From: Blastocatellia bacterium
GTDB lineage: Bacteria > Acidobacteriota > Blastocatellia > RBC074
DNA length: 53,614 nucleotides
NCBI GenBank assembly: GCA_035280505.1
Contig: DATEFT010000166.1
Location: 1-53,614, forward strand
Direction: 5' to 3'
The position numbers and the translations under genes are program-made. A model generated the notes under the pieces. The model was not told the origin of the DNA. It saw nothing but the letters and a program-made list of their open reading frames with translations, and made no database searches. Shown one piece after another: positions 13,826 to 50,079 of this stretch; the first letter of the stretch is position 1, and the number at the start of each line of letters is the position of its first letter.

Positions 13826-14297
13826 TCATCAGAGTTCGGCGGAGATCCGGGGGCTGCAATCGAAACCAGACCGCGGATCGGAACGAGCGGAATCACTGCG
13901 GGAGAAGAACGCTCCGCCGCCAATGCATACCAATTAACCAGAGCGTGGAATGGATCCGTTGCATGCAGTCGGCGGCGGCGAGAGGTCTCAGCCAATCCGC
14001 ACCAGACTGAAGGACGGGGGGAGGCGAGTTTCCGTTTATTTTACGCGCGATATCAACTTTTTCCTTATTTTCAGACCAGACCGGATCGATTAGAATATGG
14101 GTGTTACCAACACCCAAATTTACAACACCGATCTGCAGTTTCGTGGCCAGGCTATAAATCGGCAGCGCCAAGCATGGCAGTGTTGTGCACGATTGATGAT
14201 TGAAGTTCGGGCCGTCAGCCTCAGGCAGAAGTAAGGCCGCTGAAAGTTCGAGAGAATCGCACACCACACCACGAAGCGGCCGTCGAGGCACAAGTGG

Positions 14298-26689: not shown

Positions 26690-27727
26690 TTAATCCCTTA
26701 GTTTGTCTTTCTCCTGGAGGTTCTTGAGCCTCTCTTGAGCCTCAGCTCCCCAGGGAGAGGTGGCATCGAGTTTCAGGTACTCTTCCCAGTCGTGTCGCGC
26801 TTCCTTGAATCGAGCCATCTGCTCGTAACAGAGCGCGCGATTGAACCAGGCTTCCTGCAAGTGCGGGTCGAGATCGACCGCCGTATCGTAATGCTCGATG
26901 GCCTTGGTCAGCAGCGGCATCGAGTCGGAATACTTGCTGCGTTCGTAGTAGAGCGAAGCGAGATCGACGTGAAGCTTAGCTTCGTACGGCGCATTCTGAA
27001 TCGCCAGCAACAGTTGTTCTTCAGCCCGGTCCAGGTTACCGAGTAACAGGTAGAGCCGACCCAGCGCGTGCCGGGATTCGGTCGTCGGGTGCGAAGCCAC
27101 CGCGTGAGTCAGGTCAGCCAAAACATAGTTGAATTGGTCGCGATCCACTCCCGAGTTATCCGCATCGCCGCGTTGACGTTCATAAGGTTGGTAAGCAAAA
27201 CCGCCGGTCACCCGAGTCTCCAAGACCCGATTATGACGGTGGACCAACTCCATCGCCATCAATCGATCCTCGGATCTCGAACCCGGGTTATAGATCATGT
27301 AACCGGCAATTCCGACAGTCAGCAGGAGTCCGACGGCCACGCCGTGTTTCAGGTAGGATTTAAGACTCCGGCTGGCATGGTGAAGGTCAGGTCGTGGATT
27401 CCAAGACGGGTTCGATGGTCGAGGTTTGTTAGTCGAGGGCTCTCCTTCTGCCGAAGAATCAGCATCAGCCTCACTAAACTGCCATCGCGCCAACGCCGCG
27501 GCTTCCAGCCCCAGCGAGAATAACGGCGCGAGGTGTCTCTCCTCCTCTTCCCGCCTCTCTCCATAACAGACGCGTAACATCACTGCCAGTTTTGCACGAC
27601 AGTCTTCACAGTTGAGGCAGTGTTCCTCTACCTCCGCCCGTTCCGCTGCGGTGCAAGTCCCAGCTACATAGGAAGCCATAACCTCCTCAGGGGTGTGGTC
27701 GATCTGCCATAATAGTCCGTTCTTCAT
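26690..27727 (-). CDS. zf-HC2 anti-sigma-like membrane protein with a TPR domain beyond the TM helix (~345 aa)
   Basis: SYVAGTCTAAERAEVEEHCLNCEDC shows H-x3-C-x2-C. TM segment GVAVGLLLTVGIAGYMIY. The region after the TM segment is strongly similar to aa ~160-340 of the CHAT protein. Preferred start is MKNG with AGAGG 6 nt upstream. The maximal ORF reaches 27823. Confidence 0.85.
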   Translation of the reverse strand: MKNGLLWQIDHTPEEVMASYVAGTCTAAERAEVEEHCLNCEDCRAKLAVMLRVCYGERREEEERHLAPLFSLGLEAAALARWQFSEADADSSAEGEPSTNKPRPSNPSWNPRPDLHHASRSLKSYLKHGVAVGLLLTVGIAGYMIYNPGSRSEDRLMAMELVHRHNRVLETRVTGGFAYQPYERQRGDADNSGVDRDQFNYVLADLTHAVASHPTTESRHALGRLYLLLGNLDRAEEQLLLAIQNAPYEAKLHVDLASLYYERSKYSDSMPLLTKAIEHYDTAVDLDPHLQEAWFNRALCYEQMARFKEARHDWEEYLKLDATSPWGAEAQERLKNLQEKDKLRD

Positions 27728-27780
27728 CGAGACCTCTTTGAGTTGTGTATTGATTTTAGTCTGTGAATTACTGACCTCTA

Positions 27781-27826
27781 CCTTCATGGGAAAGGTAGCA
27801 AAATGCTGGAAAATGTGTGCCATTCC
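27781..27826 (-). promoter_or_regulatory. Conserved ~45-nt block A upstream of the 345-aa zf-HC2 gene
   Basis: Minus strand reads GGCACACATTTTCCAGCATTTTGCTACCTTTCCCATGAAGG and matches block D at 18651-18697. An upstream GAGATATTT is also shared. Confidence 0.5.
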
Positions 27827-29509: not shown

Positions 29510-31963
29510 ATGATTATATGGTGGTCAGACCTGCGATACAGTCTTCGTGGACTCCTCAAACAACCCGGGATGACGGCGATCGCGGTCATCTCGCTGGGGC
29601 TTGGAATCGGGGCCAACAGCGCGATCTTCAGTGTCATCAATGCCGTCCTGCTCAAACCGCTGCCGCAGCGAGAGGTCGAGCGGTTGGTCATGATCTGGGG
29701 GTCGCACCAGCGCAGCGGGCGCAGGTACAACCCGAGTTCGCCCCCGGACTTCGTCGAGTGGAGAGCGCAGAACCATGTCTTCGAGCAGATTGCCGGTTCG
29801 CGTGACAACCTGGTGACGCTGACCGGCCGCGGCGACCCGGAACAGCTACTGGGTTACCGGATCTCGGCCGACTACCTGGAGGTCATGGGGGTGCAGCCGA
29901 TGCTCGGTCGAAATTTTCGTCCGGAGGAGGATCGGGCGGGGGGCCCGCGCGTGGTGATTCTCAACCATCGCCTCTGGCAGCGCCGTTTCGCGGGGGATCC
30001 GAAGATTCTCGGGCAGTCGCTGATTCTCAACGGCGAGAGCCACCTGGTGATCGGAGTCATGCCGCCCGGATATGAAGACCTGATCGGTTCTGAAGTATGG
30101 ACGCCACTGGCGCTGACCACCGGCGATTACAACAACCAGGAGTTGCGGATCTTGCGCCTGGTCGCGCGGCTGAAGCCCGGGGTCACGATCCGGCAGGCGC
30201 AGGACGAGATGAATGCCCTGACCGCCCGGCAGGAGCGAGAGGATCCGAAGCCGCACGAGGGATGGAGAGTCGAGCTCATCCCCCTGCGCGATCACTACTT
30301 CGGCGATATCAGCCCGGCTTTGAAGTTGCTCTCCGGAGCGGTCGGCTTCGTCCTGCTGATCGCCTGCGCGAATATCTCGAATCTACTGCTCTCGAAAGTG
30401 GCGGCGCGGCGAAGAGAGTCGGCGATCCGCGCCGCGCTGGGAGCCAGCCGGTTCCGCCTGATCAGACAACTCCTGACGGAGGGCGCGATCCTGGCCCTCC
30501 TGGGCGGGCTGCTGGCGCTGCCGCTGGCCAAGCTCTCGCTCCGGCTCTTCCTCGGACTCTTCTCCAACCACATCGCCAACGTGCGGCTGCCGCATGTCGA
30601 GCGGATTCCGATCGACGGCCGCGTCCTCGGGTTCACCTTGCTGGTCTCGATCGTCTCCGGGATCATCCTGGGGCTGATCCCGGCCCGGCAGTACTCCAGG
30701 ATCAACCTCAACGAGGCGCTCAAGGACGGGAATCGGGGAGCAGGGTTGCCGGACGTCCCCCGCACCTACTTCCGCTATCGCGTCAACGAATGGACGGTGA
30801 TTGCCGAGATCGCCCTCGCGCTGGTCTTGCTCGCGGGGGCGGGCTTGATGCTCAAGAACCTGCTGCGCCTGAGCGAGGTCAAACTGGGGTTCAATCCGAA
30901 AAACGTCCTGACCATGCGGGCGATTCTGCCTCTCGACCTGCTGATCCCGCAGCCGGAAAAACGGCGCCTCTTCTACCAGAATCTGCTGCCGCGCCTGGAA
31001 TCGCTGCCCGGAATCGAGAGCGCCGGGATCATCAACTTTCTGCCGCTCAGCGGGTGGGCCGCCTACTCTTACTTCACCGTCGAGGACGGGCCGTCGCTGC
31101 CTTCCGGCGAGAAATTCAGCGCCTACGGCCGGGCCGTCAGCCCCAACTATTTTCGGACCATGGGCATTCCCATGCTGAAGGGGCGGGCCTTCACCGAATA
31201 CGATAACGAACCCTCGCCGCCGGTGATCATCATCAATGAGACCCTGGCTCGCCGTTTCTTCGGCAACGGCGACCCCATCGGCAAACGCCTGTCGGTGCCT
31301 TCCCGATATGACGCGCCCCTGATCCCCCGAGAGATCGTCGGGATCATCGGAGACGTCAGGCACGACGGAGCCGAGAACGAAATTCAACCCGAGATCTATT
31401 TTCCCTTCGTCCAGGCGCCGTCCCCGGTGCTGAGCCTGGTCCTGCGGACCAAATCGGACCCGATGAGCCTGGCCGATGCCGCCCGCCGGCAGATCTGGGC
31501 CGTCGACAAGGATCAACCGGTCTCTTACGTGATGACGATGGAACAACTGGCGGCGGAATCGACCGCCGGCAAACGGATCTCCACGCTGATGCTCGGAATC
31601 TACGCGATTCTGGCCCTCGCGATGGCCTCGATCGGGATCTACGGAGTCATGACGCATGCCGTCAGCCAGCAGACTCGCGAGTTCGGGATTCGCACGGCGC
31701 TCGGCGCCACCTCGCGTGACGTGCTGCGTCTGGTGATGTGGCGCGGGCTCTCCCTGGTCCTGATCGGAATCGGGATCGGGCTGGCCGGCGCCCTGGCCCT
31801 GACCCGAGTCAGCGCCTATCTGTTATATCAAGTGAGCGCCGCCGATCCGCTCACCCTGGTCCTGGTCTCGATCCTCCTGATCGCCATCGCGATGATCGCC
31901 TGTTACATTCCCGCTCGCCGGGCCGCGAACCTGGACCCACTGATCGCACTCAGATATGAATAG
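29510..31963 (+). CDS. ADOP-family duplicated MacB/FtsX-type ABC permease
   Basis: 817 aa. The N-terminus WSDLRYSLRGLLKQPGMTAIAVISLGLGIGANSAIFSVINAVLLKPLP is characteristic. Both MacB-like/FtsX halves are present. Confidence 0.9.
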   Translation: MIIWWSDLRYSLRGLLKQPGMTAIAVISLGLGIGANSAIFSVINAVLLKPLPQREVERLVMIWGSHQRSGRRYNPSSPPDFVEWRAQNHVFEQIAGSRDNLVTLTGRGDPEQLLGYRISADYLEVMGVQPMLGRNFRPEEDRAGGPRVVILNHRLWQRRFAGDPKILGQSLILNGESHLVIGVMPPGYEDLIGSEVWTPLALTTGDYNNQELRILRLVARLKPGVTIRQAQDEMNALTARQEREDPKPHEGWRVELIPLRDHYFGDISPALKLLSGAVGFVLLIACANISNLLLSKVAARRRESAIRAALGASRFRLIRQLLTEGAILALLGGLLALPLAKLSLRLFLGLFSNHIANVRLPHVERIPIDGRVLGFTLLVSIVSGIILGLIPARQYSRINLNEALKDGNRGAGLPDVPRTYFRYRVNEWTVIAEIALALVLLAGAGLMLKNLLRLSEVKLGFNPKNVLTMRAILPLDLLIPQPEKRRLFYQNLLPRLESLPGIESAGIINFLPLSGWAAYSYFTVEDGPSLPSGEKFSAYGRAVSPNYFRTMGIPMLKGRAFTEYDNEPSPPVIIINETLARRFFGNGDPIGKRLSVPSRYDAPLIPREIVGIIGDVRHDGAENEIQPEIYFPFVQAPSPVLSLVLRTKSDPMSLADAARRQIWAVDKDQPVSYVMTMEQLAAESTAGKRISTLMLGIYAILALAMASIGIYGVMTHAVSQQTREFGIRTALGATSRDVLRLVMWRGLSLVLIGIGIGLAGALALTRVSAYLLYQVSAADPLTLVLVSILLIAIAMIACYIPARRAANLDPLIALRYE

Positions 31964-31997: not shown

Positions 31998-32828
31998 TCA
32001 ATAGCTCGTGCGGGCGGGCAACCTGGAGGGCCACTGGGCGCGGAACCGGTTCTCCGTAAACTCCTTCTGTTCGTAGGGTGGAAGACCGACGGCCTGGCAT
32101 TCGTAATGACGAACGCCATCGGTCATCTCCGGATCGAGACGTCCGTAAGCGGCGTCGTCGGCATGAATCAACTCGTGCGCCAGCCCGATCTCGGGCGGGT
32201 GCTGGCGCCAATCCTCACCGGTGCGGAAGAGTTTCATCTCGGGATTGTATTTGATGGTCGTGCTGGACCCCGCGCCGATGCCCTTGATGGTCTTCATCTT
32301 GCCGAATTGATCCCGCCACTTGAGGATCGTCCCTTTGGCCAGAGCGGCCCGGAAATCGTCGGGCGGCGCTTCACACATCCTGCACGCCGGAACGATCCGA
32401 ACCTGCTGCCCGCTGCGCAACAGGCTGCTCAACAAGCGGCGGCCCAGCGGCATCCGCGCCAGGGTCGTCAAATGGGCGGTCGTCTTCTCCACGAACCCCG
32501 CCGGCCCCTGGATCAGCAGCCGATGCTGGTATTCGATCTCGACCTGGTCCGCCGACATGAGCTTATCGACCGCCAGACGGGCGGCATTCGAGATCCGCCC
32601 GGATTTCAACAACTCGGTCAGCCGCCGCCGCATCTCCGGCGGCAGACTTCGCAACTCTTCGACCGAGAGCGCGTCGACAATTCGACGCACCACGCTCCCC
32701 TGATCGCTCCCGCGCGCCTGGGTCAACTGCTGATCGACCCACTGGGCGGTCCGGCACAGACCGACGCGTGGTTCCAAGGCCGCGCTCTTCCGGGCAACGG
32801 TTTTTGTGGCCTTTCTCACCATGACCAT
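31998..32828 (-). CDS. HExxH zinc metallopeptidase-like protein, M91 (NleD-type effector peptidase)-like
   Basis: 276 aa. The segment LLIQGPAGFVEKTTAHLTTLARMPLGRRLLSSLLRSGQQVRIVPA is followed by GLAHELIHADDAAYG. The family assignment is from memory of the M91 pattern. Confidence 0.6.
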   Translation of the reverse strand: MVMVRKATKTVARKSAALEPRVGLCRTAQWVDQQLTQARGSDQGSVVRRIVDALSVEELRSLPPEMRRRLTELLKSGRISNAARLAVDKLMSADQVEIEYQHRLLIQGPAGFVEKTTAHLTTLARMPLGRRLLSSLLRSGQQVRIVPACRMCEAPPDDFRAALAKGTILKWRDQFGKMKTIKGIGAGSSTTIKYNPEMKLFRTGEDWRQHPPEIGLAHELIHADDAAYGRLDPEMTDGVRHYECQAVGLPPYEQKEFTENRFRAQWPSRLPARTSY

Positions 32829-33301: not shown

Positions 33302-34075
33302 CTACTTCTTGGTTCGAGACTTCGGCATGGGATACTCGGACTTGCTGAGACGCGATCCCATACAGTAATAGTTGCCCCAACCCAGGGTCGGAGCCGCGCC
33401 CTGCCAACCTCCGGCCGAGATCGGAACCAGCCGTTGTTTGGGCTTGGGCTTCACGATTTTATAGAAATAACCGAAATGGCGGAAGTCCATGGCCTCCGCG
33501 CGGTTGACGATCTCGACCTCGTAGTTCCGTCCGCCCTTGAAGACGAAGTCCTCGGTATCCCCCTCGAAATGCAGGACCGCGTATCCGTGGGCCGGAATTT
33601 CGATGTCCAGGCCGACTTTGCTGGCCGCGGTCAATTTATGGCCGCTCGGCTTCTGCGTCTTTTCGTCGGCGAAGACGGTGTCGGGATGATAGGTGATCGT
33701 ATAGAACTCCCCGTTGTTGAAATAGAATCGGGCGCGACAGGCTTTGGCGTCGGCCTTCATCTTCTCACGCGGGTAGAGTTGTTTCTCGATGTCGACGATA
33801 TAGTCGGGCGATTGGCGCGCGTCACGCCGCGACTTGGGAACGTAATTTTTGAAAGGCTCGCCTTTCGGATAGACATCCAGAGTAATGTCGCCATGGATCT
33901 CGGTGAAGTCACGATACTCGCGTTTGACCACGCCGTTCTCCTTGATCACGATGTGGGGACGATGAACATTTTCGGGAGCCTCGTCCTCGGTCGAGATCAT
34001 GCCTACCATCAATCTGGACGGGTACTTCGTAAAAAACGCGCATAGGTCTTCGAAAGTAAAATTGATAGTGCTCAT
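33302..34075 (-). CDS. Hypothetical protein, 257 aa, no recognised family
   Basis: GGAGGATAACC precedes ATG (MSTINFTFEDL...). The protein is K/Y/F-rich with no signal peptide or TM segment. It lies 137 nt downstream of the CHAT gene. The maximal ORF reaches 34132. Confidence 0.75.
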   Translation of the reverse strand: MSTINFTFEDLCAFFTKYPSRLMVGMISTEDEAPENVHRPHIVIKENGVVKREYRDFTEIHGDITLDVYPKGEPFKNYVPKSRRDARQSPDYIVDIEKQLYPREKMKADAKACRARFYFNNGEFYTITYHPDTVFADEKTQKPSGHKLTAASKVGLDIEIPAHGYAVLHFEGDTEDFVFKGGRNYEVEIVNRAEAMDFRHFGYFYKIVKPKPKQRLVPISAGGWQGAAPTLGWGNYYCMGSRLSKSEYPMPKSRTKK

Positions 34076-34212: not shown

Positions 34213-37200
34213 TCAGTTTTTCTGTGGGCTATCGCATCCATTACCGGCGAGCAGGAATGCCGCCCAGTAATATGGATGTTGGCGTCTGGAATCGGCGCCG
34301 TGAATCAGCGAGCATTGCGCCTGGCGTAGGCTTTCGCTGAAATTCTGGTGTTTGACGCGGTATTGATAGTGAAAGGTCCGCATCAGATCGGATGTGCTGT
34401 CGTCGTCGACGTCCCAGAGGCTGGCAATCACCGTCGGGACGCCGGCGGCGAGAAAGGCCTGGACCAGTCCGCTCAGGGCCTCGCCCCGAGTATAAACCCC
34501 CAGCGCCGAACGGCAACCGGAGAGCAGGACCAGGCGCGTCCGCGCCAGCTTGAGCTGATAGATCTCGTAAGCCTGCCAACTGCCGTCAAAGACCCCTTTC
34601 CGGGGCAGCCGGTCCGCCGATAGTTGATGATTCTCTTCGGCCAGCACAATTGACGAGAGCAGCGGCGATTGTTCGTTGATCAAGACATGGGTGGCCAGAT
34701 GGACGATGTCGTAGTCGCCGATCTGGCGGGTCAGAGCGCTCTCGGTCGCCTGCTCGCGACTGAGGATCTGAGCCTTCGGATAATCGGGTTTGACCCGCGT
34801 GACCTCTTCTTCGGCCGACGGCAGCGGGGGCAGTTCCGGAAATCGCTGGCGATTGAACCGCGGATTGCCGAGCCCCAGAAACGATTCGGTTCCGGCGCTC
34901 TTCCGCGCCTTGCTGCCGATGGCCATCGCCCGCGCCATGACGCTCGCGCTGGGGTTGACGGCCAGGGCATAGTCTTCGACCAGGTAGCGAGACGGCTCCG
35001 GCGAGACCAGCGCGCCGAAGGGCAACTGCGACAAGATGCCGTCGGGCACGATGCACAGGACGCGATTGCGATCGAGTCGCGCCGCGATCGGCGAGATCAG
35101 GATCTGGTACAGGTCCACCGCCTGGCGTCTGAGCAGGACCGTATCGGCCCGCGCCCGCAGACTGTCCAGATAGTCCTTGACCAGCCGGCGCAGCCGGTCC
35201 GACTTGATCTCGATGCTCTCCGAAAAGATCTCGTCCCGGGTCACCAGCCAGATCAGGAGACGATCTTCCCCGGAGCTATACTCCAGCAACTGGGCGTTGG
35301 GCGGCAAGGTCGATTGGACCTGCTTCATGGTCAGCGGACGAGCGCTGCCGGAGACCCGCAGCGTTTTGCTTCCGTCGCTCTCGCCCGGTTCGATGCGCCC
35401 GGTCAGGATGTCCAACAGGTCCCGGCTCTTGGAGATCTCGGCATAGTTGAAAGCCTGCGCCGAATCGTGCTTGGTGACGGATTGGAACTCCATCATGGCG
35501 CGATAGACATCCTGCCGACTGAAGAGGTAGACGCTGCGGCCGCGGGCGTCCTTGATCTGCTGGCGGTCGCGTTCGGCCAGCCGGATGCTGGTCTGCAGTT
35601 CGGCCTCAGCCTCGGCGATCCGTCCCTGCGCGCGGTAGGCCGCCGCCAAGCCCTGATGAATCGCCGAGAGAAAGATCCGATGATTGGTCTTGCCCAGGAT
35701 CGTCAGCGCCTGCTGGTACGCGGTGATCGCCTTGGCCGCTTCGTTCTGGCGCAGGTAGAAATCCCCGAGCGGAGTATAGAGTTCCACCTGCAGCAACAGG
35801 CGCGCCGTTCGATCCGTGATCGCCTCGGTCCGCAGAATCGCATCGTTGAGCTGAGTGACGGCCTCCTCCTGCCGGCCCAGCTTCCAGTAGTTCAGCCCCA
35901 GGCGACCGGCGAGGGCCGCCAACAAACCCGGATTGTTCAACTGCTCCGCCACCTGCCAGCCCTCCTGGTGGTAGTCGAGCGCCCGCGGGTAGTTGCCGGT
36001 CAGAAGCAGCGTCTCGCCCATGTTGGCGTGGATTCTGGCCGTGTGGAACGGAGAGAGCGGAGAGTCGCGCAGGAGGCCGATCGCCTCGAAGTTCTTCTGC
36101 TCGGCCCGCTCATAATCCCCCATCCGCAGGTAGACGTTTCCGGCCGACACCAGGCCGATGATGGCCGTGTCGGCGTCGTCGATCTCCTTGGCGATCTTGG
36201 CCGCTTCGAGGCTCAGATCCAGGGCTCGCGAAAACCGCAGCGAGTTGATATAGGCATTGGCGAGGGCGGTCAGCGCCCGGGCCTGCAACTGCCGGTGGCG
36301 ATGGCTCTCGGTGCTCGCGATCAGTTTTTTGCTGGCCGCCTCCAGGCCATGAAAGTTGGGGCGGAGGTTGTAAAAACGGGCCAGGTTGATGGCGGCGAGC
36401 TCCGCGTGACACTGGTCGCCGATTCGCTGCGCCATCTCATGCGCCTCGGAGAAATGCTGGAAGGCGTCGTCAAAGGCCCCGCCGGTATTCTCCCGGCCGC
36501 CCTGTTGCAGCAGGAACCGGATCTTCTGCAGTTCCCGGCGCTCCGTCGAGTTGGCCTTGCCGACGAAATCGACCAGATCGGCGATGTACCGGTCCCCCTT
36601 GATCTCGGCCACCAGTTGGCCCACCAGAGTCAACGTTCGGAGGCGGGCGGAGGCGAAGACGCTCTCACCGTTGACCGCCGCTCTCAAATATTCATCGAAG
36701 AGATCCTGCGTCGCCAATTGACTGACGGTGGCGAAATTTTCCGTCACCAGCCGGTGCAGCACCTGTTCGTCATTGGACGCCGCCGCCTCGCGAAGCTGAT
36801 GCTGGACTCGCTTGTTCTGATCCGTGGACTGCTGCTGCCAGTTCTGCAGCCGCTTCAGCCCCTCGCGCGCCTCGGCCGCCCAGGGCGAATCGGAATCGAT
36901 CTGCAGGTACCGCTCCCAGTCGGCCCGGGCCTTGCTGAAGAGCGCCATCTGATGATGGCAGAGCGCCCGGTTGAACCAGGCTTCGGCCAGTTGCGGATCC
37001 AGCTCGAGGGCCCGGTCGTAATGATCGACCGCCTTGGAGAGCCAGAGCAGCGGATCGCCCTTGTAGCTCCGCTCGTAGAAGAGAGCGCCCAGATCGGTAT
37101 ACAACCGGGCATCTCCGGGCGTCTTCTCCAACGCCAGCGTCAGTTGCACCTCGGCCTTGTCGAAATCACGCCCCAGCAGGTAGAAGAGCCCCAGCACATG

Positions 37201-37836
37201 CCGAGCCTCGACCGTCGGTTTGGTGGCCACGGCTCGCGTCAACTCGACGAGGTCCTCGCTGAACTTCTCGGCCTCCGGGCTGGCCGTCGCCGACGAACCC
37301 CGTTTACGCTCGTAGGGCCGATAGGCGAATCCGCCCGTAATCCGCGCCTGCAAAGGCCGGCTATGTCCGTAACTGCGGTAGAGGATCGCGAGACTGTCCT
37401 GACCTCGCGGTCCCCGCCACCATCCCCGATAATAGAGTAGTCCCGAAATAATCAAGACGGTCGTCACGAATAACAGGATGTAGAACTGCTTGCGGCCCAC
37501 CTGAAATTTCGATAAGGGCCAGAACCGGAATCTTCTGGTATCGGCTTGACGATTCTTTCGAACGGCCTCGGAAGCGAGCCGGCTCACACGCTGGAGGGCC
37601 TGTCTGATCGCTTCCTTCCCCGTCGAGAGATTCTTTCCCGCGTTGGGCGGCTCCTCCACTCCATCCGTCTCACTGTAAAGATGGAGCAGGACCGCGATTC
37701 GCGTACAGCACTCCTTACAGGAGAGACAGTGCATCTCAACTTCGTACTCTTCTCCCGGGTTACATTCCCCGGCAACATAAGCAGCCATCAACCTATTTGA
37801 GATGTGCCCATCACGTTCCGGGTGATGATCTTTCAC
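34213..37836 (-). CDS. zf-HC2 anti-sigma-like domain + TM helix + TPR array + C-terminal CHAT (caspase-like) protease, ~1207 aa
   Basis: AAYVAGECNPGEEYEVEMHCLSCKEC is the zf-HC2 signature. TM segment FYILLFVTTVLIISGLLYY, followed by a long TPR-like region. CHAT dyad contexts are DIVHLATHV and LVLLSGCRSALG, with the tail HPYYWAAFLLAGNG. Preferred start is GTG at 37836 after GAGGAGG. The maximal ORF reaches 37860. Confidence 0.9.
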   Translation of the reverse strand: MKDHHPERDGHISNRLMAAYVAGECNPGEEYEVEMHCLSCKECCTRIAVLLHLYSETDGVEEPPNAGKNLSTGKEAIRQALQRVSRLASEAVRKNRQADTRRFRFWPLSKFQVGRKQFYILLFVTTVLIISGLLYYRGWWRGPRGQDSLAILYRSYGHSRPLQARITGGFAYRPYERKRGSSATASPEAEKFSEDLVELTRAVATKPTVEARHVLGLFYLLGRDFDKAEVQLTLALEKTPGDARLYTDLGALFYERSYKGDPLLWLSKAVDHYDRALELDPQLAEAWFNRALCHHQMALFSKARADWERYLQIDSDSPWAAEAREGLKRLQNWQQQSTDQNKRVQHQLREAAASNDEQVLHRLVTENFATVSQLATQDLFDEYLRAAVNGESVFASARLRTLTLVGQLVAEIKGDRYIADLVDFVGKANSTERRELQKIRFLLQQGGRENTGGAFDDAFQHFSEAHEMAQRIGDQCHAELAAINLARFYNLRPNFHGLEAASKKLIASTESHRHRQLQARALTALANAYINSLRFSRALDLSLEAAKIAKEIDDADTAIIGLVSAGNVYLRMGDYERAEQKNFEAIGLLRDSPLSPFHTARIHANMGETLLLTGNYPRALDYHQEGWQVAEQLNNPGLLAALAGRLGLNYWKLGRQEEAVTQLNDAILRTEAITDRTARLLLQVELYTPLGDFYLRQNEAAKAITAYQQALTILGKTNHRIFLSAIHQGLAAAYRAQGRIAEAEAELQTSIRLAERDRQQIKDARGRSVYLFSRQDVYRAMMEFQSVTKHDSAQAFNYAEISKSRDLLDILTGRIEPGESDGSKTLRVSGSARPLTMKQVQSTLPPNAQLLEYSSGEDRLLIWLVTRDEIFSESIEIKSDRLRRLVKDYLDSLRARADTVLLRRQAVDLYQILISPIAARLDRNRVLCIVPDGILSQLPFGALVSPEPSRYLVEDYALAVNPSASVMARAMAIGSKARKSAGTESFLGLGNPRFNRQRFPELPPLPSAEEEVTRVKPDYPKAQILSREQATESALTRQIGDYDIVHLATHVLINEQSPLLSSIVLAEENHQLSADRLPRKGVFDGSWQAYEIYQLKLARTRLVLLSGCRSALGVYTRGEALSGLVQAFLAAGVPTVIASLWDVDDDSTSDLMRTFHYQYRVKHQNFSESLRQAQCSLIHGADSRRQHPYYWAAFLLAGNGCDSPQKN

Positions 37837-37895
37837 GGAAACCTCCTCAAAGGGACCCACGCCACGGTTAACCCCTTGAAAGATACCAAAATCCC

Positions 37896-38274: not shown

Positions 38275-39315
38275 TCAAGAGGCCCGGAAACGATCCTGCA
38301 GGATCGCCAGCGCGATTCGGACATGGGAGATAAAGAGCTCCGCCGAGAGCTGGTCGCTGTGCATCGGCATCAGTACCCGGTAAGGTTCCAGCTTACTCCA
38401 GGCGTGTAGAATCTGGGTGGGCAGTTCCGGCGTGATGTTAACGTAGAGCTCCAGTTGGCGCACGAACTCCTCGAGCGGAAGATAGAGCAAGCTCTCGAAG
38501 ATCTCCGCGTGACAGATCGTCAACACCTGCTCCATGGTCTCGGGGCCGAAGCGCCGGGCCAGCTCTTCGTGATAGTACCGCCCGCTGTTGTAGTCACGCG
38601 TCGACGAGATGTAGGTCAATCCCAGGAACTCACTGCGCGCCCCCGACAGCTCGCGGCGCTTGAACTCCTCGAGGGCCAGCTCAACCTCTACCTTCCGGAC
38701 CGGCCGGCGCCAGCCCTCGCCGGGAGGCCCCGCCTGCAGAACCTCGCTGGAGTAGGTCTCCTCGATCAGCGCCCGGTGTAACCGGGCCGCATCGAGCCCT
38801 CGCAGCCGGTCGCTGAACTCGCCCTCCATCCGCCATCCGATCCGCGCCAGCCACAGTCCGAGGCGGGAGAGGTAGTACGGACCGCAGACCGGAACCAGCG
38901 ACTGTAACAGGGCGGACGAGAGTCGAAAGAGCGCCAGGCATCCCGCCAGCTTCAGTTCGGAACCGGGCTTGAAACCGAAGTACGGCCGGAGAATCACGCG
39001 CTGCAGATCGGTCAATCGATCGATCTGCCGCCGCGACTGCCGCAGCCAGGAACGGATCAGGGCCTGGCGTTCGCGCTTGAAGAGCTGCCGGAGCGGCCTC
39101 GACGACTGCCGGCCGAGAAAGTCCCAGTCCATCCTCAGGAAGATTCTGGTTACCAGCTCCCTGGGCAATACCTTCAATTCAATCTGGACCGGCGCTTCCA
39201 GTGATCCGGAGGATCTCGGTTGATCACCGCTCACCTTCCTCACCGCAACTAGAAACGAACCCAACAACCAAATAGGAGCGCAAGCCAGCATGACTAGGAG
39301 GATCTCTACGACCAT
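38275..39315 (-). CDS. Hypothetical membrane protein, 346 aa (fused form of the 41149-41703 and 40610-41044 pair)
   Basis: N-terminal TM helix and a central hydrophobic hairpin. The C-terminal domain LGLTYISSTRDYNSGRYYHEELARRFGPETMEQVL... matches the 144-aa protein, and RIFLRMDWDFLGRQ...QLFKRERQALIRSWL matches the 184-aa protein. Confidence 0.75.
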   Translation of the reverse strand: MVVEILLVMLACAPIWLLGSFLVAVRKVSGDQPRSSGSLEAPVQIELKVLPRELVTRIFLRMDWDFLGRQSSRPLRQLFKRERQALIRSWLRQSRRQIDRLTDLQRVILRPYFGFKPGSELKLAGCLALFRLSSALLQSLVPVCGPYYLSRLGLWLARIGWRMEGEFSDRLRGLDAARLHRALIEETYSSEVLQAGPPGEGWRRPVRKVEVELALEEFKRRELSGARSEFLGLTYISSTRDYNSGRYYHEELARRFGPETMEQVLTICHAEIFESLLYLPLEEFVRQLELYVNITPELPTQILHAWSKLEPYRVLMPMHSDQLSAELFISHVRIALAILQDRFRAS

Positions 39316-40150
39316 TCCTGCCCCCCACTACCCGTTGGTATCAGATATGTTCAGTAACTCGCACAGCGATCCCACCTGACCCCTGGGCAAGCCACACCTC
39401 TACCCACATTTTATTCGGTTGACCTCTAGTCGCTCTCGCCCTGCAATTCCATGACCCGGCATGGATGAACGCCCCGGAACCTCGCCCCACGCCCATACCG
39501 CATCACGTAAACAACTGATTTTCATCATCTTTGAGCAGATGGTCTGAGAGAAAAAATGAGGGATCTGCTCACTCGGTTGGGCCTCATCTTACACCAATCG
39601 AGGCGGATTTGTTAGTAAAAAAGGTATTCCCCTTCAACCGCGATAACTCGAATAGCAGATTGTGTATGGCTCCGATGCATCCGAATACCTCTCTTATTTA
39701 GAACCTCTTCTGCACCGAGCTTTGTACGTGGTCTCGGAAGGAGAGGTATCGGAGGTTTCGGTTATCCGAAATTGGGAATCGATTCTAGGCCGGGTTGACA
39801 GGCTCCACGACTGAGGCCCCGATTCAAGGCCGGAGCCACAACTTATAACATTTAGCTCATGATTCAACTATAAATAACAATACAAATATATGACAATCAA
39901 GGTGACAACCTAAGCCGACATTTGTTATCTTATCAAAAAGGCAATTCAATAAAGCAAGACGTTACAAATTGACATCGGTATCACCTACATATGGTTGGCG
40001 AGGTCTCACCAGTCGAACGATGAACGTCGCCGTGATGATCAAAATAATCGGACTCACGGCGCTAGCATCTGTCAGAATGATAAGGCTCTTAAATAAGAGC
40101 AGCTTTAGGTATGGTGCCGTTTTATGTCACCTATCAGGAGGAATAACCTG

Positions 40151-40435
40151 ATGGGAAGAACCTCTCGCTTAAGACCTAAAAGACTGGCGGAGAAACTACT
40201 GAAGATTCGCCAGGCCTTGGGTCTCTCACAAGGGCGCCTGATCGATCATCTGCAGTTAAACGAGGTGATCTATCCCGGCTACATCTCCGACTACGAAAAC
40301 GAGAAACGTGAACCATCGTTACAGGTGCTGCTGGCCTATGCGCGGGCGGCGGGGATCTGTTTGGACCTGCTGGCGGACGACGAGTTGGATCTTCCGGAGC
40401 AGTTGCCGAGCGTGCCGACCCATCAAGGTAGGTAG
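40151..40435 (+). CDS. XRE-family helix-turn-helix transcriptional regulator (94 aa)
   Basis: LLKIRQALGLSQGRLIDHL......YISDYENEKREPSLQVLLAYARA is a Cro/C1-type HTH. AGGAGGAA lies 7 nt before the ATG. The maximal ORF starts at 40124. Confidence 0.8.
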   Translation: MGRTSRLRPKRLAEKLLKIRQALGLSQGRLIDHLQLNEVIYPGYISDYENEKREPSLQVLLAYARAAGICLDLLADDELDLPEQLPSVPTHQGR

Positions 40436-40609: not shown

Positions 40610-41044
40610 TCAGCCTCCTTCACAGATCACGGCCGCCGCCTGGCGGGCATGCAGGACGGCCAGGGCGACCTTGATATTTGAGAAGAAGAGCTCGGCGGTC
40701 AGCGGCTCGCAGTCGCCCGGCGGCAGCACGCGGTAGGGAGCGAGTTGATCCCAGAGGCGTGAGGCTTCGGTCCAGGGCGACATGGCGGAGCAGAGATAGC
40801 TCTCCAGTTGCTCGACGACCTCCGTCAGAGGGCTGAGCGCCAATCGTTCAAAGACTTCGCGGTGGCAGGCGGCCAGCGCCTGGTCTACCATCTCGTCCGA
40901 GTAGTGATAGGCCAGGAAGTCATGGTGGTACCGGCTGGCACGATAGTCCCGGGTCGAGGCCAGGTAGACCAGCCGGGCGATATCCTCGCGAATAACTTGC
41001 AGGAACACCTGTTCGATCTCTTGAATCACCATTGCTAATTCCAT
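40610..41044 (-). CDS. Hypothetical soluble protein, 144 aa (C-terminal-half homolog of the 346-aa protein)
   Basis: AAGGAG lies ~8 nt before ATG (MELAMVIQEIEQ...). LVYLASTRDYRASRYHHDFLAYHYSDEMVDQAL aligns to the 346-aa protein. The maximal ORF reaches 41194. Confidence 0.7.
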   Translation of the reverse strand: MELAMVIQEIEQVFLQVIREDIARLVYLASTRDYRASRYHHDFLAYHYSDEMVDQALAACHREVFERLALSPLTEVVEQLESYLCSAMSPWTEASRLWDQLAPYRVLPPGDCEPLTAELFFSNIKVALAVLHARQAAAVICEGG

Positions 41045-41148
41045 GTTCCTAGCTCCTTCGCTGCCGCAGGCCTCGCATGAAATTACCGGCGTCTTCGATC
41101 CATAGCTTCCCACAGCGCGCCCCCGCGCCGTGCCCTGCGCGGCGTCGA

Positions 41149-41703
41149 TCATCGATGGAGTCGAACGACCGGCGCGGGCAGTTCTTGAGAGCAACGTTTC
41201 AGAATGGTCACCACCCAGGAGGCCAGATGGTCGGCGTAGACCGGGTTACCCCATCGAATCATCACAAACAAGATGGCACACAGACTCAAGAAGAGGGGGT
41301 AATAGGTAACAACCTTGAAACCGGCCGTCATGCGGGGATGATGATCGCGTGGGGATTCGATCAGGTGCCGGTAGGCCACCCAGGTCGCGTGCTGGCGAAC
41401 ATGAAACAACCATTGAAACGCCAGCGACCGGCGTTCCCGAATAAATAACTGTTGAACCGAGGTGGTCTCCTGCTCGACTACCGCCCAGTCCGCTCGATTG
41501 AAGATTCTTCGGGCCAACTCACGCCAAGGATCCACGGAGCGGAGGGTGCTCAAGTCATAACCTGATGATGTGGTATCTCTTCTGCCCATGCTGAAACCGT
41601 GCCGGATCGAGGTGGCCGGCACCCCTTCGATCCCGGGAGCGCACTCTACCGACGTGTTAGGGCTGTGCAGAAAACGTCTGTCACTCGCTGGGCGTTTGGC
41701 CAC
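41149..41703 (-). CDS. Hypothetical membrane protein (N-terminal-half homolog of the 346-aa protein); start uncertain
   Basis: ARRIFNRADWAVVEQETTSVQQLFIRERRSLAFQWLFHVRQ plus a hydrophobic hairpin, FKVVTYYPLFLSLCAILFVMI. No clear RBS at either candidate start. Confidence 0.6.
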   Translation of the reverse strand: MAKRPASDRRFLHSPNTSVECAPGIEGVPATSIRHGFSMGRRDTTSSGYDLSTLRSVDPWRELARRIFNRADWAVVEQETTSVQQLFIRERRSLAFQWLFHVRQHATWVAYRHLIESPRDHHPRMTAGFKVVTYYPLFLSLCAILFVMIRWGNPVYADHLASWVVTILKRCSQELPAPVVRLHR

Positions 41704-41949: not shown

Positions 41950-42657
41950 TCAGAGCATCCGATGCGAGATCTGGCCGTTGATAATCGTCGCCCCTGGCCC
42001 GACGCCCCCAACTCCGGCGGCGCGCCTCGGCGATCTTTGGTATCGGTACATCAACCCTTCTTGTCGATAACTCCGGACCCGGCCGGCGGGATGGCCCCAC
42101 CCCTTCGGCCCTTCGTTCGGCCATAGATCCGAGTGGGCCGAGCGGGCCGTTTCGCCGGTCATCCACAACTGAAGCCCGGGCGAGCTACCAGGAAAATAAC
42201 CCAGGTGGACCAGGAGGCGTTCGGGCGAGTCCGGCGAAGGCCCGTGCCACCAGGCCGAGCAACTGAGCAGTCCGCCCAGCATGAAGATCCCCAGGATCAC
42301 GGCGGAGGGCAGCGGAACCCAGTTCCCCTCCTGGCCCTGGCTGGAGACTCGCTCCGGCATTCGACCGGGTTGTTCTTCTCGCTCCGCCAACTGGCGAGCG
42401 CGCGCCGCAGCTTCCCGACCCAGCGGGAGGAAGGCCTCCCAATCGCGTGACTCATCTTCAATCTCGAGGGCGACTTTCAGATTGATCAAAACCGTGAGCT
42501 GGGCTCGACACGTGACGCATTCCAGGCAATGCACTTCAATCGCCTTCTTCTCAGCCGGTGAACAGGCTCCTGCCGTGTAATTGATCAGCGTCTGCCCATC
42601 TTGATGAATATTCCGATCGTCTTGCTCCATTACCACCTTGCCCATTTCTAATACCAA
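41950..42657 (-). CDS. zf-HC2 anti-sigma factor, single TM helix (235 aa maximal ORF)
   Basis: INYTAGACSPAEKKAIEVHCLECVTCRAQL shows H-x3-C-x2-C. TM segment LPSAVILGIFMLGGLLSCSAWW. It lies downstream of the ECF sigma on the same strand. Confidence 0.8.
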   Translation of the reverse strand: MVLEMGKVVMEQDDRNIHQDGQTLINYTAGACSPAEKKAIEVHCLECVTCRAQLTVLINLKVALEIEDESRDWEAFLPLGREAAARARQLAEREEQPGRMPERVSSQGQEGNWVPLPSAVILGIFMLGGLLSCSAWWHGPSPDSPERLLVHLGYFPGSSPGLQLWMTGETARSAHSDLWPNEGPKGWGHPAGRVRSYRQEGLMYRYQRSPRRAAGVGGVGPGATIINGQISHRML

Positions 42658-45507: not shown

Positions 45508-48387
45508 TTAGGTCCGTCTCTTTGTCTTGGCCTTCTCCCGAATCTCGCGGACGCGGGCAAACAATCCGGCCGCTTCGTTGCTGCGGTTCATGAGGCGCAA
45601 GAGAGCGCCATAGTTCTCCAGGATGGTGGCGACGTTGAGGTGGTCGGGACCCAGCACCTTCTCCCGGATGGCAATCGCGCGCTGATAGAGGGGCTCCGCC
45701 TCTTCGTACTTCCGCTGCGAGGAGTAGAGCAGGGCCAGATTGTTGAGGCTCTGGGCCGTATCCGGATGGTCGGCCCCCAGGGTTCGTTCGCGGATCGCCA
45801 GCGCCCGCTCGTAGAGCGGTTCGGCCGCCTGATACCTCCATTGCGAATAGTAGAACGCGGCCAGATTGTTGAGGCTCTGGGCCGTATCCGGATGATCGCT
45901 CCCCAGCGCCTGCTCGCGAACGGCGAGGGCGCGCTGGTAGAGAGGTTCGGCCTCACCATACTTGCCCTGCGCGGTGTAGATCGCCGCCAGATGGTTCAGA
46001 CTGTTGGCCGTCTCCGGATGGACGGCGCCCAATGACCGCTCGCGGATCGCCAGCGCCCGCTCGTAGAGCGGTTCGGCCTCTCCGACCTTACCCTGCCCGG
46101 AGTAGATCACCGCCAACTGGTCGATGGCGTTGACGATCACCGGATGTTGATCCCCCAGGGGTTGCTCGTAGACGGTGATGATCCGTTTATAGAGTCGCTC
46201 CGCGACCCCGTACTTGCCCTGCACCCGGTAGAGGTCCGCCAGGCTGCTGAGACTCTGGGCCGTGTCCGGGTGTTCGGCTCCCAGGGCCTGCTCCCGGATC
46301 GTCAGCGCCCGCTCATAGAGCGGTTCGGCCTCTCCGTATTTGCCCAATGAATCGTGGAACGAGGCCAGGTTGCTGAGACTCCAGGCCGTCCAGGGATGGA
46401 GCGCCCCCATGGCCTTCTCGTAGACGGCGACGACCCGCTTATAGAGCTGTTCGGCCATCCCGAACTTGCCTTGGGCCCGGTAGAGCCCCGCCAGATGATG
46501 CAGAGTGGTGGCCGTATCCTGATGATCGGCGCCCAGGACGCGTTCCCGGATGGTCAGCGCGCGGTGGTAGAGCGGTTCGGCCTCGCTGTACCGCGCCTGT
46601 CCGGCCAGGTAGGAACCCACCTTGATCAGGAGCCGGGAGGCGGCGGGAAACTCGAAGTCGTAGCGGTCGATCAGTCCGGCCAGCGCCTGCGCATGCTGAA
46701 TCAGACGCTCACACTCCGGCCGGTTGGTGGATTCCACCTCCGGAAAGGCCGCATTGACGGCGCGGACCAGCCGTTCCGCCCATAATCGTTTGGCCGGATC
46801 GAACATTCCGCCTTTCAGCAGATCCTGCAGCAGGCGATGAAGACTGAGCGTTCTGGCCTGCGGATCGCGCCGCAGCATCGAAAAACGCTCGGCTTCGCCG
46901 ATCGCCTCGATCAACCCGCCCGGTCCGTCCGGAGTCTCGACGGCGCAACCCAGGGCCTCGCCCAGTTCGGCCGCTCCCCGGTCAAAGAGCTCTTCGGGAA
47001 TCGCGTCGGGCTCCATGAAAGCACAGAGGCGTAACAGGTCGGCGGTGGCGGGGTTGCGGTCCGACACCTGCTTGAAGGTCATCCCGAAGCTGGCCGAGAC
47101 CGCGACCGAATGGTCGTCCGGAAGATCCCGGCGGCGGTCCCGCAGTTTGGCGCTTTCGGACCGGTACGATTCCAGATACTCCGCCAGGGTCGACGAAGTC
47201 TCGCCGAGATAGGCCGCCGCCTGCTCGAGCGCGAGCGGGAGCCCGCCCAGTTCTCTTGACAACTCCTCCGCCTGTGAACGGATCGCGGGCGGCGCCGCAT
47301 CCAGGGTGGCCTCCCGCGGGGATTGGCGGATCTTCCGCCACAGGAAGAGCGCGCCCTCCTGCGGCGACCAGCCCTCGACGAGATGGCAGGTGGCGACCCG
47401 GCCGCCGGTCTGGGCCCGCGTCGTCAAGAGGACATGGCCGGTCGCGCCCCTCGGAATAAACTCTCTCGCCATCGTCGGATCGTCGGCGCTGTCGAGGATC
47501 AACAGCCAGCCGTCATTCTCTTCCAGCCACCCCCGAACCACTTTGACGGCCTCGCCCCAGTCCTCGGAGGCACGTTCGGGAATGTCGAGCAGCCCGGCCA
47601 TGGCGACGAAATCGGCCATCAGCATCTCTTTGGTTCGGGCCCGCCCCCACAACATCACGCGGTAGCGGTCGCGATGCCGGGACGCGTACTCCAGCGCGAT
47701 CCGGGTCTTGCCGATGCCGCCCCGCCCGTTCAGCGCCTGCACCGATTGCCCGCTGTCGAATCCATTCTCCAGCACCCGCAGGATGGCTTCACGCCCGGTG
47801 AAGTATTCATGATTGAAATTCGGGAGATTGGACATCCAGCGTTCCCAGGGGGGCGCCCCATTGAGGGCCGGCCCCGGCACGGATCGTGAGATCGGCGGCG
47901 GCAACACAGGTTCCGACTCCGCGGCCATCAAGTAGTGATGGTATCCGTTGCCGTTCCCGTTCCCGTTGGGCATTCCGCCGACGCCCGGAGTATGATCGAG
48001 ACGATCTTCCCCGAACACCGCGCCATGACGGCCGGTGATCAGGTGCGCGTCACCATTCGTTCTTCTCTGATTGAATATTTTCTTGATCTCTTCAGCCAAC
48101 GCTCGATCGGTCGAGAGGATATCTTCCAGTTCCACCTCCAAAACCGTCTGGTACTTGGCGTTCCCCGGCGAGGCCACCACCCGATGTGCGGCATTGAGGG
48201 CCATGGGCTTCTCCTCAATCTTCCGCATCAACTTATCGATCCACGCGGTCTCCCAGTCCTCCGCAGTCGCGTCCTCCAGGAGATTATCCAGGCTCTCACC
48301 GTCGGTGAACTTTCCGGTTTCGATCATCGCGGGCAGGTACCGAATGAGGTACGGCATGACTAGTGGCGCAATATTTGTGACGTCCAT
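45508..48387 (-). CDS. NB-ARC-type STAND NTPase with a C-terminal TPR array and an unassigned ~200-aa N-terminal domain (NLR-like)
   Basis: P-loop GRGGIGKTRIALEYA and Walker B WLLILDSADD. Eight clear 42-aa units of the type AEPLYERALAIRE..LG..HPDTAQSLNNLA.LY. AGAGGAAG lies before the ATG. Confidence 0.9.
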   Translation of the reverse strand: MDVTNIAPLVMPYLIRYLPAMIETGKFTDGESLDNLLEDATAEDWETAWIDKLMRKIEEKPMALNAAHRVVASPGNAKYQTVLEVELEDILSTDRALAEEIKKIFNQRRTNGDAHLITGRHGAVFGEDRLDHTPGVGGMPNGNGNGNGYHHYLMAAESEPVLPPPISRSVPGPALNGAPPWERWMSNLPNFNHEYFTGREAILRVLENGFDSGQSVQALNGRGGIGKTRIALEYASRHRDRYRVMLWGRARTKEMLMADFVAMAGLLDIPERASEDWGEAVKVVRGWLEENDGWLLILDSADDPTMAREFIPRGATGHVLLTTRAQTGGRVATCHLVEGWSPQEGALFLWRKIRQSPREATLDAAPPAIRSQAEELSRELGGLPLALEQAAAYLGETSSTLAEYLESYRSESAKLRDRRRDLPDDHSVAVSASFGMTFKQVSDRNPATADLLRLCAFMEPDAIPEELFDRGAAELGEALGCAVETPDGPGGLIEAIGEAERFSMLRRDPQARTLSLHRLLQDLLKGGMFDPAKRLWAERLVRAVNAAFPEVESTNRPECERLIQHAQALAGLIDRYDFEFPAASRLLIKVGSYLAGQARYSEAEPLYHRALTIRERVLGADHQDTATTLHHLAGLYRAQGKFGMAEQLYKRVVAVYEKAMGALHPWTAWSLSNLASFHDSLGKYGEAEPLYERALTIREQALGAEHPDTAQSLSSLADLYRVQGKYGVAERLYKRIITVYEQPLGDQHPVIVNAIDQLAVIYSGQGKVGEAEPLYERALAIRERSLGAVHPETANSLNHLAAIYTAQGKYGEAEPLYQRALAVREQALGSDHPDTAQSLNNLAAFYYSQWRYQAAEPLYERALAIRERTLGADHPDTAQSLNNLALLYSSQRKYEEAEPLYQRAIAIREKVLGPDHLNVATILENYGALLRLMNRSNEAAGLFARVREIREKAKTKRRT

Positions 48388-49891: not shown

Positions 49892-50079
49892 GACAGTCTC
49901 CTCTCGATCGCGCGCCGCTCTCCGCCGAGCCGGACGCGCGCATTCAAAATACTCTCTTTACTGCGGTTTGGCCAATACTCTATAATTCCTCTCATTCTAC
50001 CCCCGGCATCGCTTCCATTCGCTCCCGGTTCAAGGGAGGGTTGTTGTGGCTAGTAGGATGCCTATTCGGTTCGTCCCAC

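Follow-up and report, generated by a model that had tools for sequence, protein, structure and literature searches.

A probable DdvA-type transmembrane anti-sigma protein with a TPR-CHAT module, and its conserved neighbours, in Acidobacteriota

The Myxococcus xanthus sigma factor DdvS, of the extracytoplasmic function (ECF) type, has a transmembrane anti-sigma protein, DdvA, of about 990 residues (PMC6061681, PMC11506125). DdvA consists of a cytoplasmic zinc anti-sigma domain, one transmembrane helix and a periplasmic TPR-CHAT region with a His862/Cys907 dyad (PMC11506125), and it has been solved by electron cryomicroscopy (cryo-EM) and by nuclear magnetic resonance (PDB 8ROT, 8RW5 and 8RLZ; NAR 2018, Sci Adv 2024; PMC6061681, PMC11506125). 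The assembly is dimeric and arrow-shaped, and the three-alpha-helix active-site motif is absent from it (PMC11506125). According to the DdvA paper only a subset of DdvA-like pairs control antiphage islands, made up of a cyclic-oligonucleotide-based antiphage signalling system (CBASS) or type III-B CRISPR, and the published survey reports such proteins solely from Myxococcota and a single Comamonas species. Here we describe a relative from another phylum. It is encoded on the minus strand of a 53,614-nucleotide stretch of a Blastocatellia bacterium (Acidobacteriota; contig DATEFT010000166.1, positions 1 to 53,614, called the window below), by a gene we refer to as the CHAT gene.

Homology to DdvA spans the full length of the protein and shows in both sequence and fold. 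A full-length family profile of 35 sequences matched the DdvA chain 8rot_B at E=9.2e-41, in a collinear alignment of profile positions 16-629 with chain positions 7-587, which extends from the zinc domain through the TPR repeats. DdvA was the best natural PDB protein found with this profile, outscored only by designed consensus-TPR proteins. A profile of the CHAT domain only ranked DdvA first (E=2e-15), ahead of Csx29 (about 1e-5) and separase (2e-4), and aligned H1058 and C1116 of our protein with H862 and C907 of DdvA. The best Foldseek matches in the PDB were again DdvA, with 8rw5 at E=1.4e-20 and a TM-score of 0.67 over 1081 columns and 8rot_A at a TM-score of 0.64; Csx29 reached 0.39-0.44, with E of about 1e-12 to 1e-14. 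Family profiles were required for PDB searches to reach DdvA: the search with the single whole protein was dominated by designed TPR proteins, and the CHAT domain alone gave only weak separase matches. We think that the protein is probably a single-pass transmembrane anti-sigma of the DdvA type, with an intact His/Cys dyad.

The longest open reading frame (ORF) at the locus, 34213..37860 (-), has 1215 residues and a GTG start. Starting at the GTG at 37836 gives 1207 residues, and this start agrees with an identical database protein (P0001) and with the N-termini of orthologues. Residues are numbered here by the 1215-residue ORF, and the window coordinates of the key residues were confirmed by translation (Table 1). 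The initial annotation of the gene had read an H-x3-C-x2-C anti-sigma signature, one hydrophobic helix, TPR-like repeats and a CHAT domain with its dyad in HLATH and LSGC contexts, and all of these were borne out. Pfam CHAT (PF12770) covers residues 914-1207 at E=6.5e-68 (229.7 bits against a cutoff of 24; positions 4-289 of the 289 in the hidden Markov model). The segment IVHLATH contains H1054 and H1058, LLSGC contains C1116, and the pair H1058 and C1116 is at least 90% conserved in alignments of 35 and of 73 family sequences. Residues 218-330 and 520-775 score above threshold with multiple Pfam TPR families, and Peptidase_C50 is matched weakly. The hydrophobic segment, YILLFVTTVLIISGLLYY, has a hydropathy of 2.1, is the sole such segment in the N-terminal part and forms a helix in the AlphaFold2 (AF2) model. 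This model covers residues 17-1215, used 73 homologues and has a predicted local distance difference test score (pLDDT) of 89.6 and a predicted TM-score (pTM) of 0.83. Its parts are an N-terminal three-helix bundle, the transmembrane helix, a superhelix of TPR repeats and a beta-sheet CHAT domain. Between about residues 195 and 820 it contains helices only, so that the helical and TPR repeats take up some 630 residues. A 36-residue central helix (model 310-345) recalls alpha12 of DdvA, the 37-residue helix called the 'midrib'.

When the domains were checked against Pfam, CHAT and TPR passed, but the zinc domain of this protein on its own did not, scoring 16.4 bits against zf-HC2 where the cutoff is 22.2. 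It was rescued by its homologues. H44, C48 and C51 are invariant across 28 homologous N-termini, two paralogues from the window included, and the fourth ligand, 24 residues upstream, is His among close relatives (H19 in our protein), with Cys taking its place in distant members. Twenty of the 28 N-termini match zf-HC2 individually at E<0.01, and an N-terminal family profile retrieved from the PDB at E<1e-4 zinc anti-sigma (ZAS) domains only: RslA (1e-7), ChrR (2e-6), the DdvA N-terminal domain 8RLZ (4.7e-6), RsiW (6e-5) and full-length DdvA (8e-5). Because the ligands are invariant, 20 of 28 N-termini match zf-HC2 and the profile finds ZAS structures only, we accept the predicted zinc-binding anti-sigma domain (ZASD) as genuine despite its sub-threshold score. 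It shares with the class I ZAS proteins RslA, ChrR, RsiW and RsrA the pattern H/C-x24-H-x3-C-x2-C on a three-helix bundle. Those proteins, however, are soluble or have a small extracytoplasmic domain (a cupin in ChrR), and none of them carries a TPR-CHAT module.

The likeness to DdvA extends to the order of the parts, which begins with ZASD and transmembrane helix and goes on through a flexible juxtamembrane linker to a helical scaffold that includes a long central helix, and then to a TPR superhelix and a CHAT domain with its His/Cys dyad at the C-terminus. It extends also to the placing of TPR-CHAT outside the cytoplasm, predicted in our case, and to a similar operon logic, the order here being anti-sigma, unknown protein, peptidase. 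This architecture of zinc domain, transmembrane helix and TPR-CHAT has already been published with DdvA, and so is not new. There are also clear differences. Sequence identity is about 15%, our protein exceeds DdvA by about 220 residues, an extra cytoplasmic helix between ZASD and transmembrane helix among them, and its first zinc ligand is His (HHCC) where that of DdvA is Cys (CHCC; PMC11506125). A juxtamembrane motif, RxxExR-TGGFxY, is specific to the family of our protein. The sigma gene is non-adjacent in this copy and in most orthologues, and the neighbours are a protein that we call unk254, an M91 peptidase and an ADOP permease, whereas those of DdvA are CBASS, type III-B CRISPR and a C25 peptidase. 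The phylum, finally, is Acidobacteriota.

The predicted topology is N-terminus in and C-terminus out. Of 44 ZASD-bearing homologues, 27 have more Lys and Arg on the N-terminal than on the C-terminal flank of the transmembrane helix, and 4 show the reverse. Many other family members have a plain signal peptide or a lipoprotein-like anchor in place of ZASD and transmembrane helix, with the same TPR-CHAT body behind it. Because of the charge bias, these homologues and the cryo-EM structure of DdvA, we place TPR-CHAT, by prediction, outside the cytoplasm. A CHAT domain in that position would therefore be unable to cleave a cytoplasmic sigma factor or a Csx30-like protein.

This bears directly on the comparison with the type III-E Craspase, in which Csx29 acts with Csx30 and RpoE. 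The initial annotation had named it as the only characterised link that it knew of between a TPR-CHAT protein and an ECF sigma factor, overlooking the published DdvA and DdvS (PMC6061681, PMC11506125). The likeness is real as far as it goes, since Csx29 combines TPR repeats with a CHAT protease that is functionally linked to an ECF-type sigma, and its fold match to our protein is significant. But Csx29 is cytoplasmic, is guided by RNA via Cas7-11, has neither ZASD nor transmembrane helix, cleaves the separate protein Csx30, and matches our protein less well than DdvA does, by TM-score and by profile E-value. With CHAT placed outside the cytoplasm by the charge bias, the signal-peptide homologues and the DdvA structure, the analogy is mechanistically misleading. 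A Craspase-like mechanism, in which CHAT would cleave a Csx30-like or anti-sigma substrate in the cytoplasm and so free the sigma, seems to us very improbable, given also that the window has no CRISPR array and no Cas7-11 gene, as had been noted from the start, and that its scanned ORFs of at least 150 residues have no Cas domains. In favour of such a mechanism is the NCBIfam model NF041236, 'type III-E CRISPR-associated RpoE-like sigma factor', which is the next-best model after the generic ECF one for both sigma-like proteins of the window. Its scores (E=4.5e-8, 33 bits, and E=6.5e-7, 29.5 bits) are far below the cutoff of 100 and are a curiosity, not a sign of membership. The broader proposal of a CRISPR-independent, protease-coupled transmembrane sigma switch agrees with the function shown or proposed for DdvA, and what falls away is its novelty.

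Separase, too, has a caspase-fold domain behind a scaffold of helical repeats, and the context of its catalytic Cys aligns with ours. It is, however, eukaryotic, cytoplasmic or nuclear and far larger, and its Foldseek TM-score is only 0.21-0.38. The PADLOC defence models gave no specific match for any protein of the cluster. We also considered ECF54, an actinobacterial group with CHAT and subtilase neighbours (PMC8999054), and dropped it, as it is described without an anti-sigma and belongs to another phylum.

A survey of the family and its neighbours in Acidobacteriota, which the initial annotation had suggested, found the family to be widespread. A pattern scan of a one-genome-per-species collection with the close-family alignment gave 342 relatives, from which 75 loci were kept, mostly from Acidobacteriota (Blastocatellia, Vicinamibacterales and Thermoanaerobaculia). 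Neighbours were counted in 26 non-redundant full-length orthologues, 25 of them with enough flank to score unk254 and the M91 gene. The distribution in Acidobacteriota is new relative to what the published DdvA survey reported. A DdvA-type design in so large an acidobacterial family would make it ancient, widespread and not tied to CBASS or CRISPR.

The two sigma-like genes that the initial annotation had pointed out in the window are indeed paralogues, and we call the one on the minus strand sigA. It shares its strand with the CHAT gene, stands 5.2 kb upstream of it and comes directly before a short paralogue of the anti-sigma N-terminus. Its product matches TIGR02937 (sigma70-ECF) over positions 3-163 of 165 at E=6.8e-11, with 42.1 bits against a cutoff of 42.9, and Pfam Sigma70_r2 at E=8e-4, below the cutoff. 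The second sigma-like protein matches TIGR02937 over almost its full length at E=3e-9, just under the cutoff. Orthologues of sigA, 39-61% identical, stand directly upstream of the CHAT gene in two of the 26 loci and within the cluster in five (Table 1); a further one is directly upstream in L026, where the identity of 34% puts the locus outside the set of 26. The earlier remark that no sigma gene is adjacent is thus literally true and yet incomplete. Sigma70_r4_2 is matched by 13 of 18 ORFs directly upstream of family members that bear the anti-sigma domain. Three distant members also have a directly upstream ORF, with a weak Sigma70_r4_2 match in L084 and L085 and no Pfam match in L083.

Of the other neighbours, unk254 is encoded no more than 1.3 kb from the CHAT gene in 25/25 orthologous loci, and an M91 peptidase gene is present in 21/25. 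The ADOP permease is in the cluster of seven orthologous loci (L007, L012, L014, L016, L017, L021, L022), in varied gene order. Downstream of the distant member in L085 there are a remote relative of unk254 (hhalign E=0.0018, 227 columns) and an ADOP permease. From the counts at orthologous and distant loci, the link of the family to ECF-like sigmas is real but loose in the orthologous clade, while the link to unk254 is tight. Neither unk254 nor the M91 protein has a signal peptide, and for this reason they are more likely to be outputs of a regulon, or cytoplasmic partners, than substrates of CHAT. As conserved partners they are concrete candidates for a regulon or for co-factors. The gene module around the anti-sigma in Acidobacteriota is undescribed in the literature that we searched.

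The 114 homologues of unk254 are all annotated 'hypothetical' and have no Pfam domain. The AF2 model, mostly beta, is confident (pLDDT 91.2, pTM 0.89), and a fold search of the PDB and BFVD gave no meaningful match, with TM-scores all at or below about 0.2; the modelled fold may be new. Its invariant residues include Y54, H200 and C238. The M91 protein has, beside its Pfam match, a weak match to the XopG family of NCBIfam.

Between the transmembrane helix and the helical scaffold the family has an almost invariant juxtamembrane consensus, R168-x2-E/Q-x-R173-[LIV]-T-G-G-F-x-Y-x-P (also written R-x-[ILV]-E-x-R-[LIV]-T-G-G-F-x-Y-x-P), which in our protein reads RPLQARITGGFAYRPY. R168 and R173 are invariant in alignments of 35 and 23 sequences, 69 of 73 sequences have the two together, and the motif is modelled confidently by AF2, at a pLDDT of about 92.

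On the analogy of DdvA, the cytoplasmic three-helix zinc domain would, at rest, sequester an ECF-like sigma, for which the product of sigA is the best candidate and its paralogue the alternative. The TPR-CHAT module would sense a signal, probably a protein, from the envelope or the periplasm, as proposed by analogy with DdvA (PMC11506125), and on the same analogy its bulk would also sterically block the site-2 protease. Activation would remove the periplasmic module, either through self-cleavage of the juxtamembrane linker by CHAT, possibly in trans, or through another site-1 protease. An RseP-type intramembrane cleavage could come next, and cytoplasmic degradation of the anti-sigma domain would then free the sigma. 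Gene linkage suggests that the freed sigma might drive unk254, M91 and perhaps the ADOP permease, which would take the place of the CBASS or CRISPR output of Myxococcus. Put together, this would be an undescribed acidobacterial module of a DdvA-type sensor, a divergent ECF-like sigma, unk254, M91 and ADOP, in which an envelope signal (a phage or competitor protein) leads to CHAT self-cleavage near RxxExR-TGGF and to a sigma-driven proteolytic effector response. We offer the complete scheme tentatively and give it a low probability. If it were true, a protease-based effector module would be a new class of output for protease-gated sigma switches, and would offer a handle on the signals of TPR-CHAT proteins.

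A number of results weigh against the DdvA-type reading, and some of them concern catalysis. Mutants of the DdvA dyad had no phenotype in the conditions tested, autoproteolysis by its CHAT domain is unproven, and its active site has been described as incomplete and resting (PMC11506125). Three members of our family (P0067, P0070 and P0074) have lost the dyad and retain the juxtamembrane Arg-Arg motif, so that motif and dyad do not co-vary among the 73 members, and a profile of the juxtamembrane segment does not detect DdvA. Because the members without a dyad keep both Arg, the motif is no evidence of a cleavage site. It may be a structural docking element, and a cleavage site only speculatively; it is nevertheless a testable site for the proposed self-cleavage. 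The behaviour of the DdvA mutants, the incomplete active site of DdvA and the members without a dyad would suit a DdvA-type anti-sigma whose CHAT domain is a non-catalytic sensor or a steric plug, the sigma being released by a separate site-1 protease or by oxidation or zinc loss of the ZASD. Zinc sites of the HHCC/CHCC type can be redox-sensitive, as is established for RsrA and ChrR, and the site in our protein is of this type. On the other hand H1058 and C1116 are kept in 69 of the 73 diverse members (about 94%), which argues for selection on catalysis, and the CHAT match is strong and full length. We consider a purely non-catalytic CHAT domain unlikely.

The remaining adverse points concern the sigma factor. 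No sigma gene adjoins our copy, where the immediate upstream gene encodes an unknown protein of 346 residues, and none was found in 18 of the 26 orthologous loci, in the 4.5-10 kb of flank examined. The sigA gene is itself immediately followed by the short ZASD-transmembrane paralogue, possibly its true partner. The sigma-like family of the window is, to judge from its sequences, divergent, falling just below the TIGR02937 cutoff, and its profile gave no significant match to ECF sigma structures in the PDB (E=0.096). Upstream of 10 orthologous sigma genes there was no ECF-type promoter motif shared beyond close relatives, and upstream of 10 window genes no shared promoter motif was found, the DdvS-type GTAA-n16-CGT and the generic GAAC-n-CGT included. 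A scan for generic sigma-70 promoters and terminators was uninformative.

The protein might then be a membrane-anchored extracytoplasmic protease or scaffold that works on envelope or periplasmic substrates together with unk254, M91 and ADOP, with the zinc domain as a cytoplasmic anchor or as a redox or zinc sensor and no control of a sigma. The adjacency of unk254 in every locus scored, set beside a sigma-like gene nearby in only 7 of 26, would fit this, as would the conserved dyad and the members with just a signal peptide or membrane anchor, which imply that the TPR-CHAT body can function without an anti-sigma domain. It fits poorly with zinc ligands and anti-sigma helices that are invariant across deep divergence, with a profile that matches sigma-binding ZAS domains only, and with the same-strand gene directly upstream of distant members bearing the anti-sigma domain, which is usually sigma-like. 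Moreover unk254 and M91, having no signal peptide, would not meet a periplasmic protease. We find this account doubtful, and prefer that of a DdvA-type anti-sigma.

Table 1. Features of the window and of the orthologous loci, with the evidence for each. Residues follow the 1215-residue ORF.
Feature	Position	Strand	Evidence
DdvA-like transmembrane anti-sigma gene	34213..37836	(-)	ORF listing, P0001 (1207 aa), Pfam domains, DdvA fold match
Predicted ZASD, three-helix bundle	37669..37812	(-)	Invariant ligand columns, ZAS profile matches, AF2 helices
ZASD ligands	H19 37804-37806; H44 37729-37731; C48 37717-37719; C51 37708-37710	(-)	Motif H-x24-H-x3-C-x2-C
Single transmembrane helix, residues 127-148	37417..37482	(-)	Hydropathy, AF2 helix, Lys/Arg bias
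Juxtamembrane motif RPLQARITGGFAYRPY, residues 168-183	37312..37359	(-)	Family alignments, AF2
Predicted extracytoplasmic helical scaffold and TPR superhelix, residues ~195-820	35401..37278	(-)	Pfam TPR, AF2, DdvA profile match
CHAT caspase-fold domain, residues ~823-1207	34240..35394	(-)	Pfam CHAT, dyad conservation, DdvA alignment
Catalytic dyad	H1058 34687-34689; C1116 34513-34515	(-)	Conservation and alignment to DdvA H862/C907
sigA, candidate cognate ECF-like sigma, 216 aa	43031..43681	(-)	TIGR02937, Pfam Sigma70_r2, orthologue linkage
Second sigma-like paralogue	17898..18536	(+)	47% identical to sigA, TIGR02937
unk254, 257 aa from ATG 34075, predicted all-beta	33302..34075	(-)	Orthologous-locus conservation, AF2
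Peptidase_M91 (NleD/XopG-like zinc metalloprotease), HELIH motif	31998..32828	(-)	Full-length Pfam PF14891 E=3.2e-18
MacB_PCD/FtsX duplicated permease, ADOP type	29510..31963	(+)	Pfam; recurrent neighbour
Short anti-sigma N-terminus paralogue, 235 aa (ZASD, transmembrane helix and ~85 aa, no TPR-CHAT)	41950..42657	(-)	blastp 26% over residues 15-151, HxxxCxxC
Third paralogue, 377 aa: ZASD, transmembrane helix, juxtamembrane motif, first TPR block	26690..27823	(-)	40% identical to residues 4-339 of the CHAT gene product
unk346, 346 aa, upstream neighbour	38275..39315	(-)	No Pfam or NCBIfam match
Sigma-like gene directly upstream in orthologous loci	L001, L025		2/26
Sigma-like gene in cluster of orthologous loci	L012, L014, L016, L017, L021		5/26

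The window holds two further anti-sigma N-termini (Table 1). Downstream of the short paralogue there are no decayed remnants of TPR-CHAT. The third paralogue scores 24.5 bits against zf-HC2, above the cutoff, and ends before the main TPR-CHAT body. It has no same-strand ORF of at least 60 residues upstream, where the stretch from 28 to 30 kb has the lowest content of guanine and cytosine in the window (0.51).

The upstream neighbour of the CHAT gene, unk346, is a possible member of the system. A paralogue of it, split into 41149..41703 (-) and 40610..41194 (-), of 184 and 194 residues, lies downstream of the short anti-sigma paralogue, and a similar split pair (176 and 165 residues) follows the orthologous CHAT gene in L021, at 13600-14668. 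A protein of the unk346 type may be another recurrent component of the cluster. Between the two anti-sigma modules there is a small HTH_3 protein, 40124..40435 (+), with weak PADLOC matches to HTH_VI, control protein and capH.

Fifteen orthologous loci (L003, L006, L009-L011, L013, L015, L018-L020, L023, L028, L029, L031 and L048) have an ORF of about 270-300 residues directly upstream of the CHAT gene, ending 110-230 bp before it. In the two loci checked, L003 and L006, it carries a match to Pfam AlkZ-rel (PF24741). Neither the upstream gene nor the sigma of the window is related to it, and it may reflect plain synteny or be a functional partner.

In a sister clade of TPR-CHAT proteins (P0022-P0035; loci L034, L036-L040, L044 and L085) the HxxxCxxC domain is replaced by an N-terminal domain that is not of the zinc type. 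This domain, with the approximate consensus 'RRYLLGEL..xE...vE..LL.DdE', resembles an anti-sigma domain without zinc. Seven of the eight loci have an ORF of some 190-205 residues in front of the gene, the remaining one, L034, being without upstream flank, and six of these ORFs are among the 18 scanned for Sigma70_r4_2.

The second sigma-like gene is followed by a gene for a 984-residue Peptidase_S8 subtilase with an SLH domain, 19160..22114 (+), which contains five copies of a 34-nt repeat (19269..19518) at a spacing of mostly 48 nt and once 72 nt. Just upstream of the same sigma-like gene lies a BTAD/AAA/TPR (AfsR-like) regulator, 14298..17645. A 959-residue STAND-type NTPase with NB-ARC, DUF7779 and TPR domains is encoded near the cluster, at 45508..48387 (-), and with the AfsR-like regulator it makes the neighbourhood rich in STAND and TPR signalling proteins. 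Two convergent genes, 50041..51138 (+) and 51157..52218 (-), encode paralogous VWA-domain proteins with 26% identity over 285 residues.

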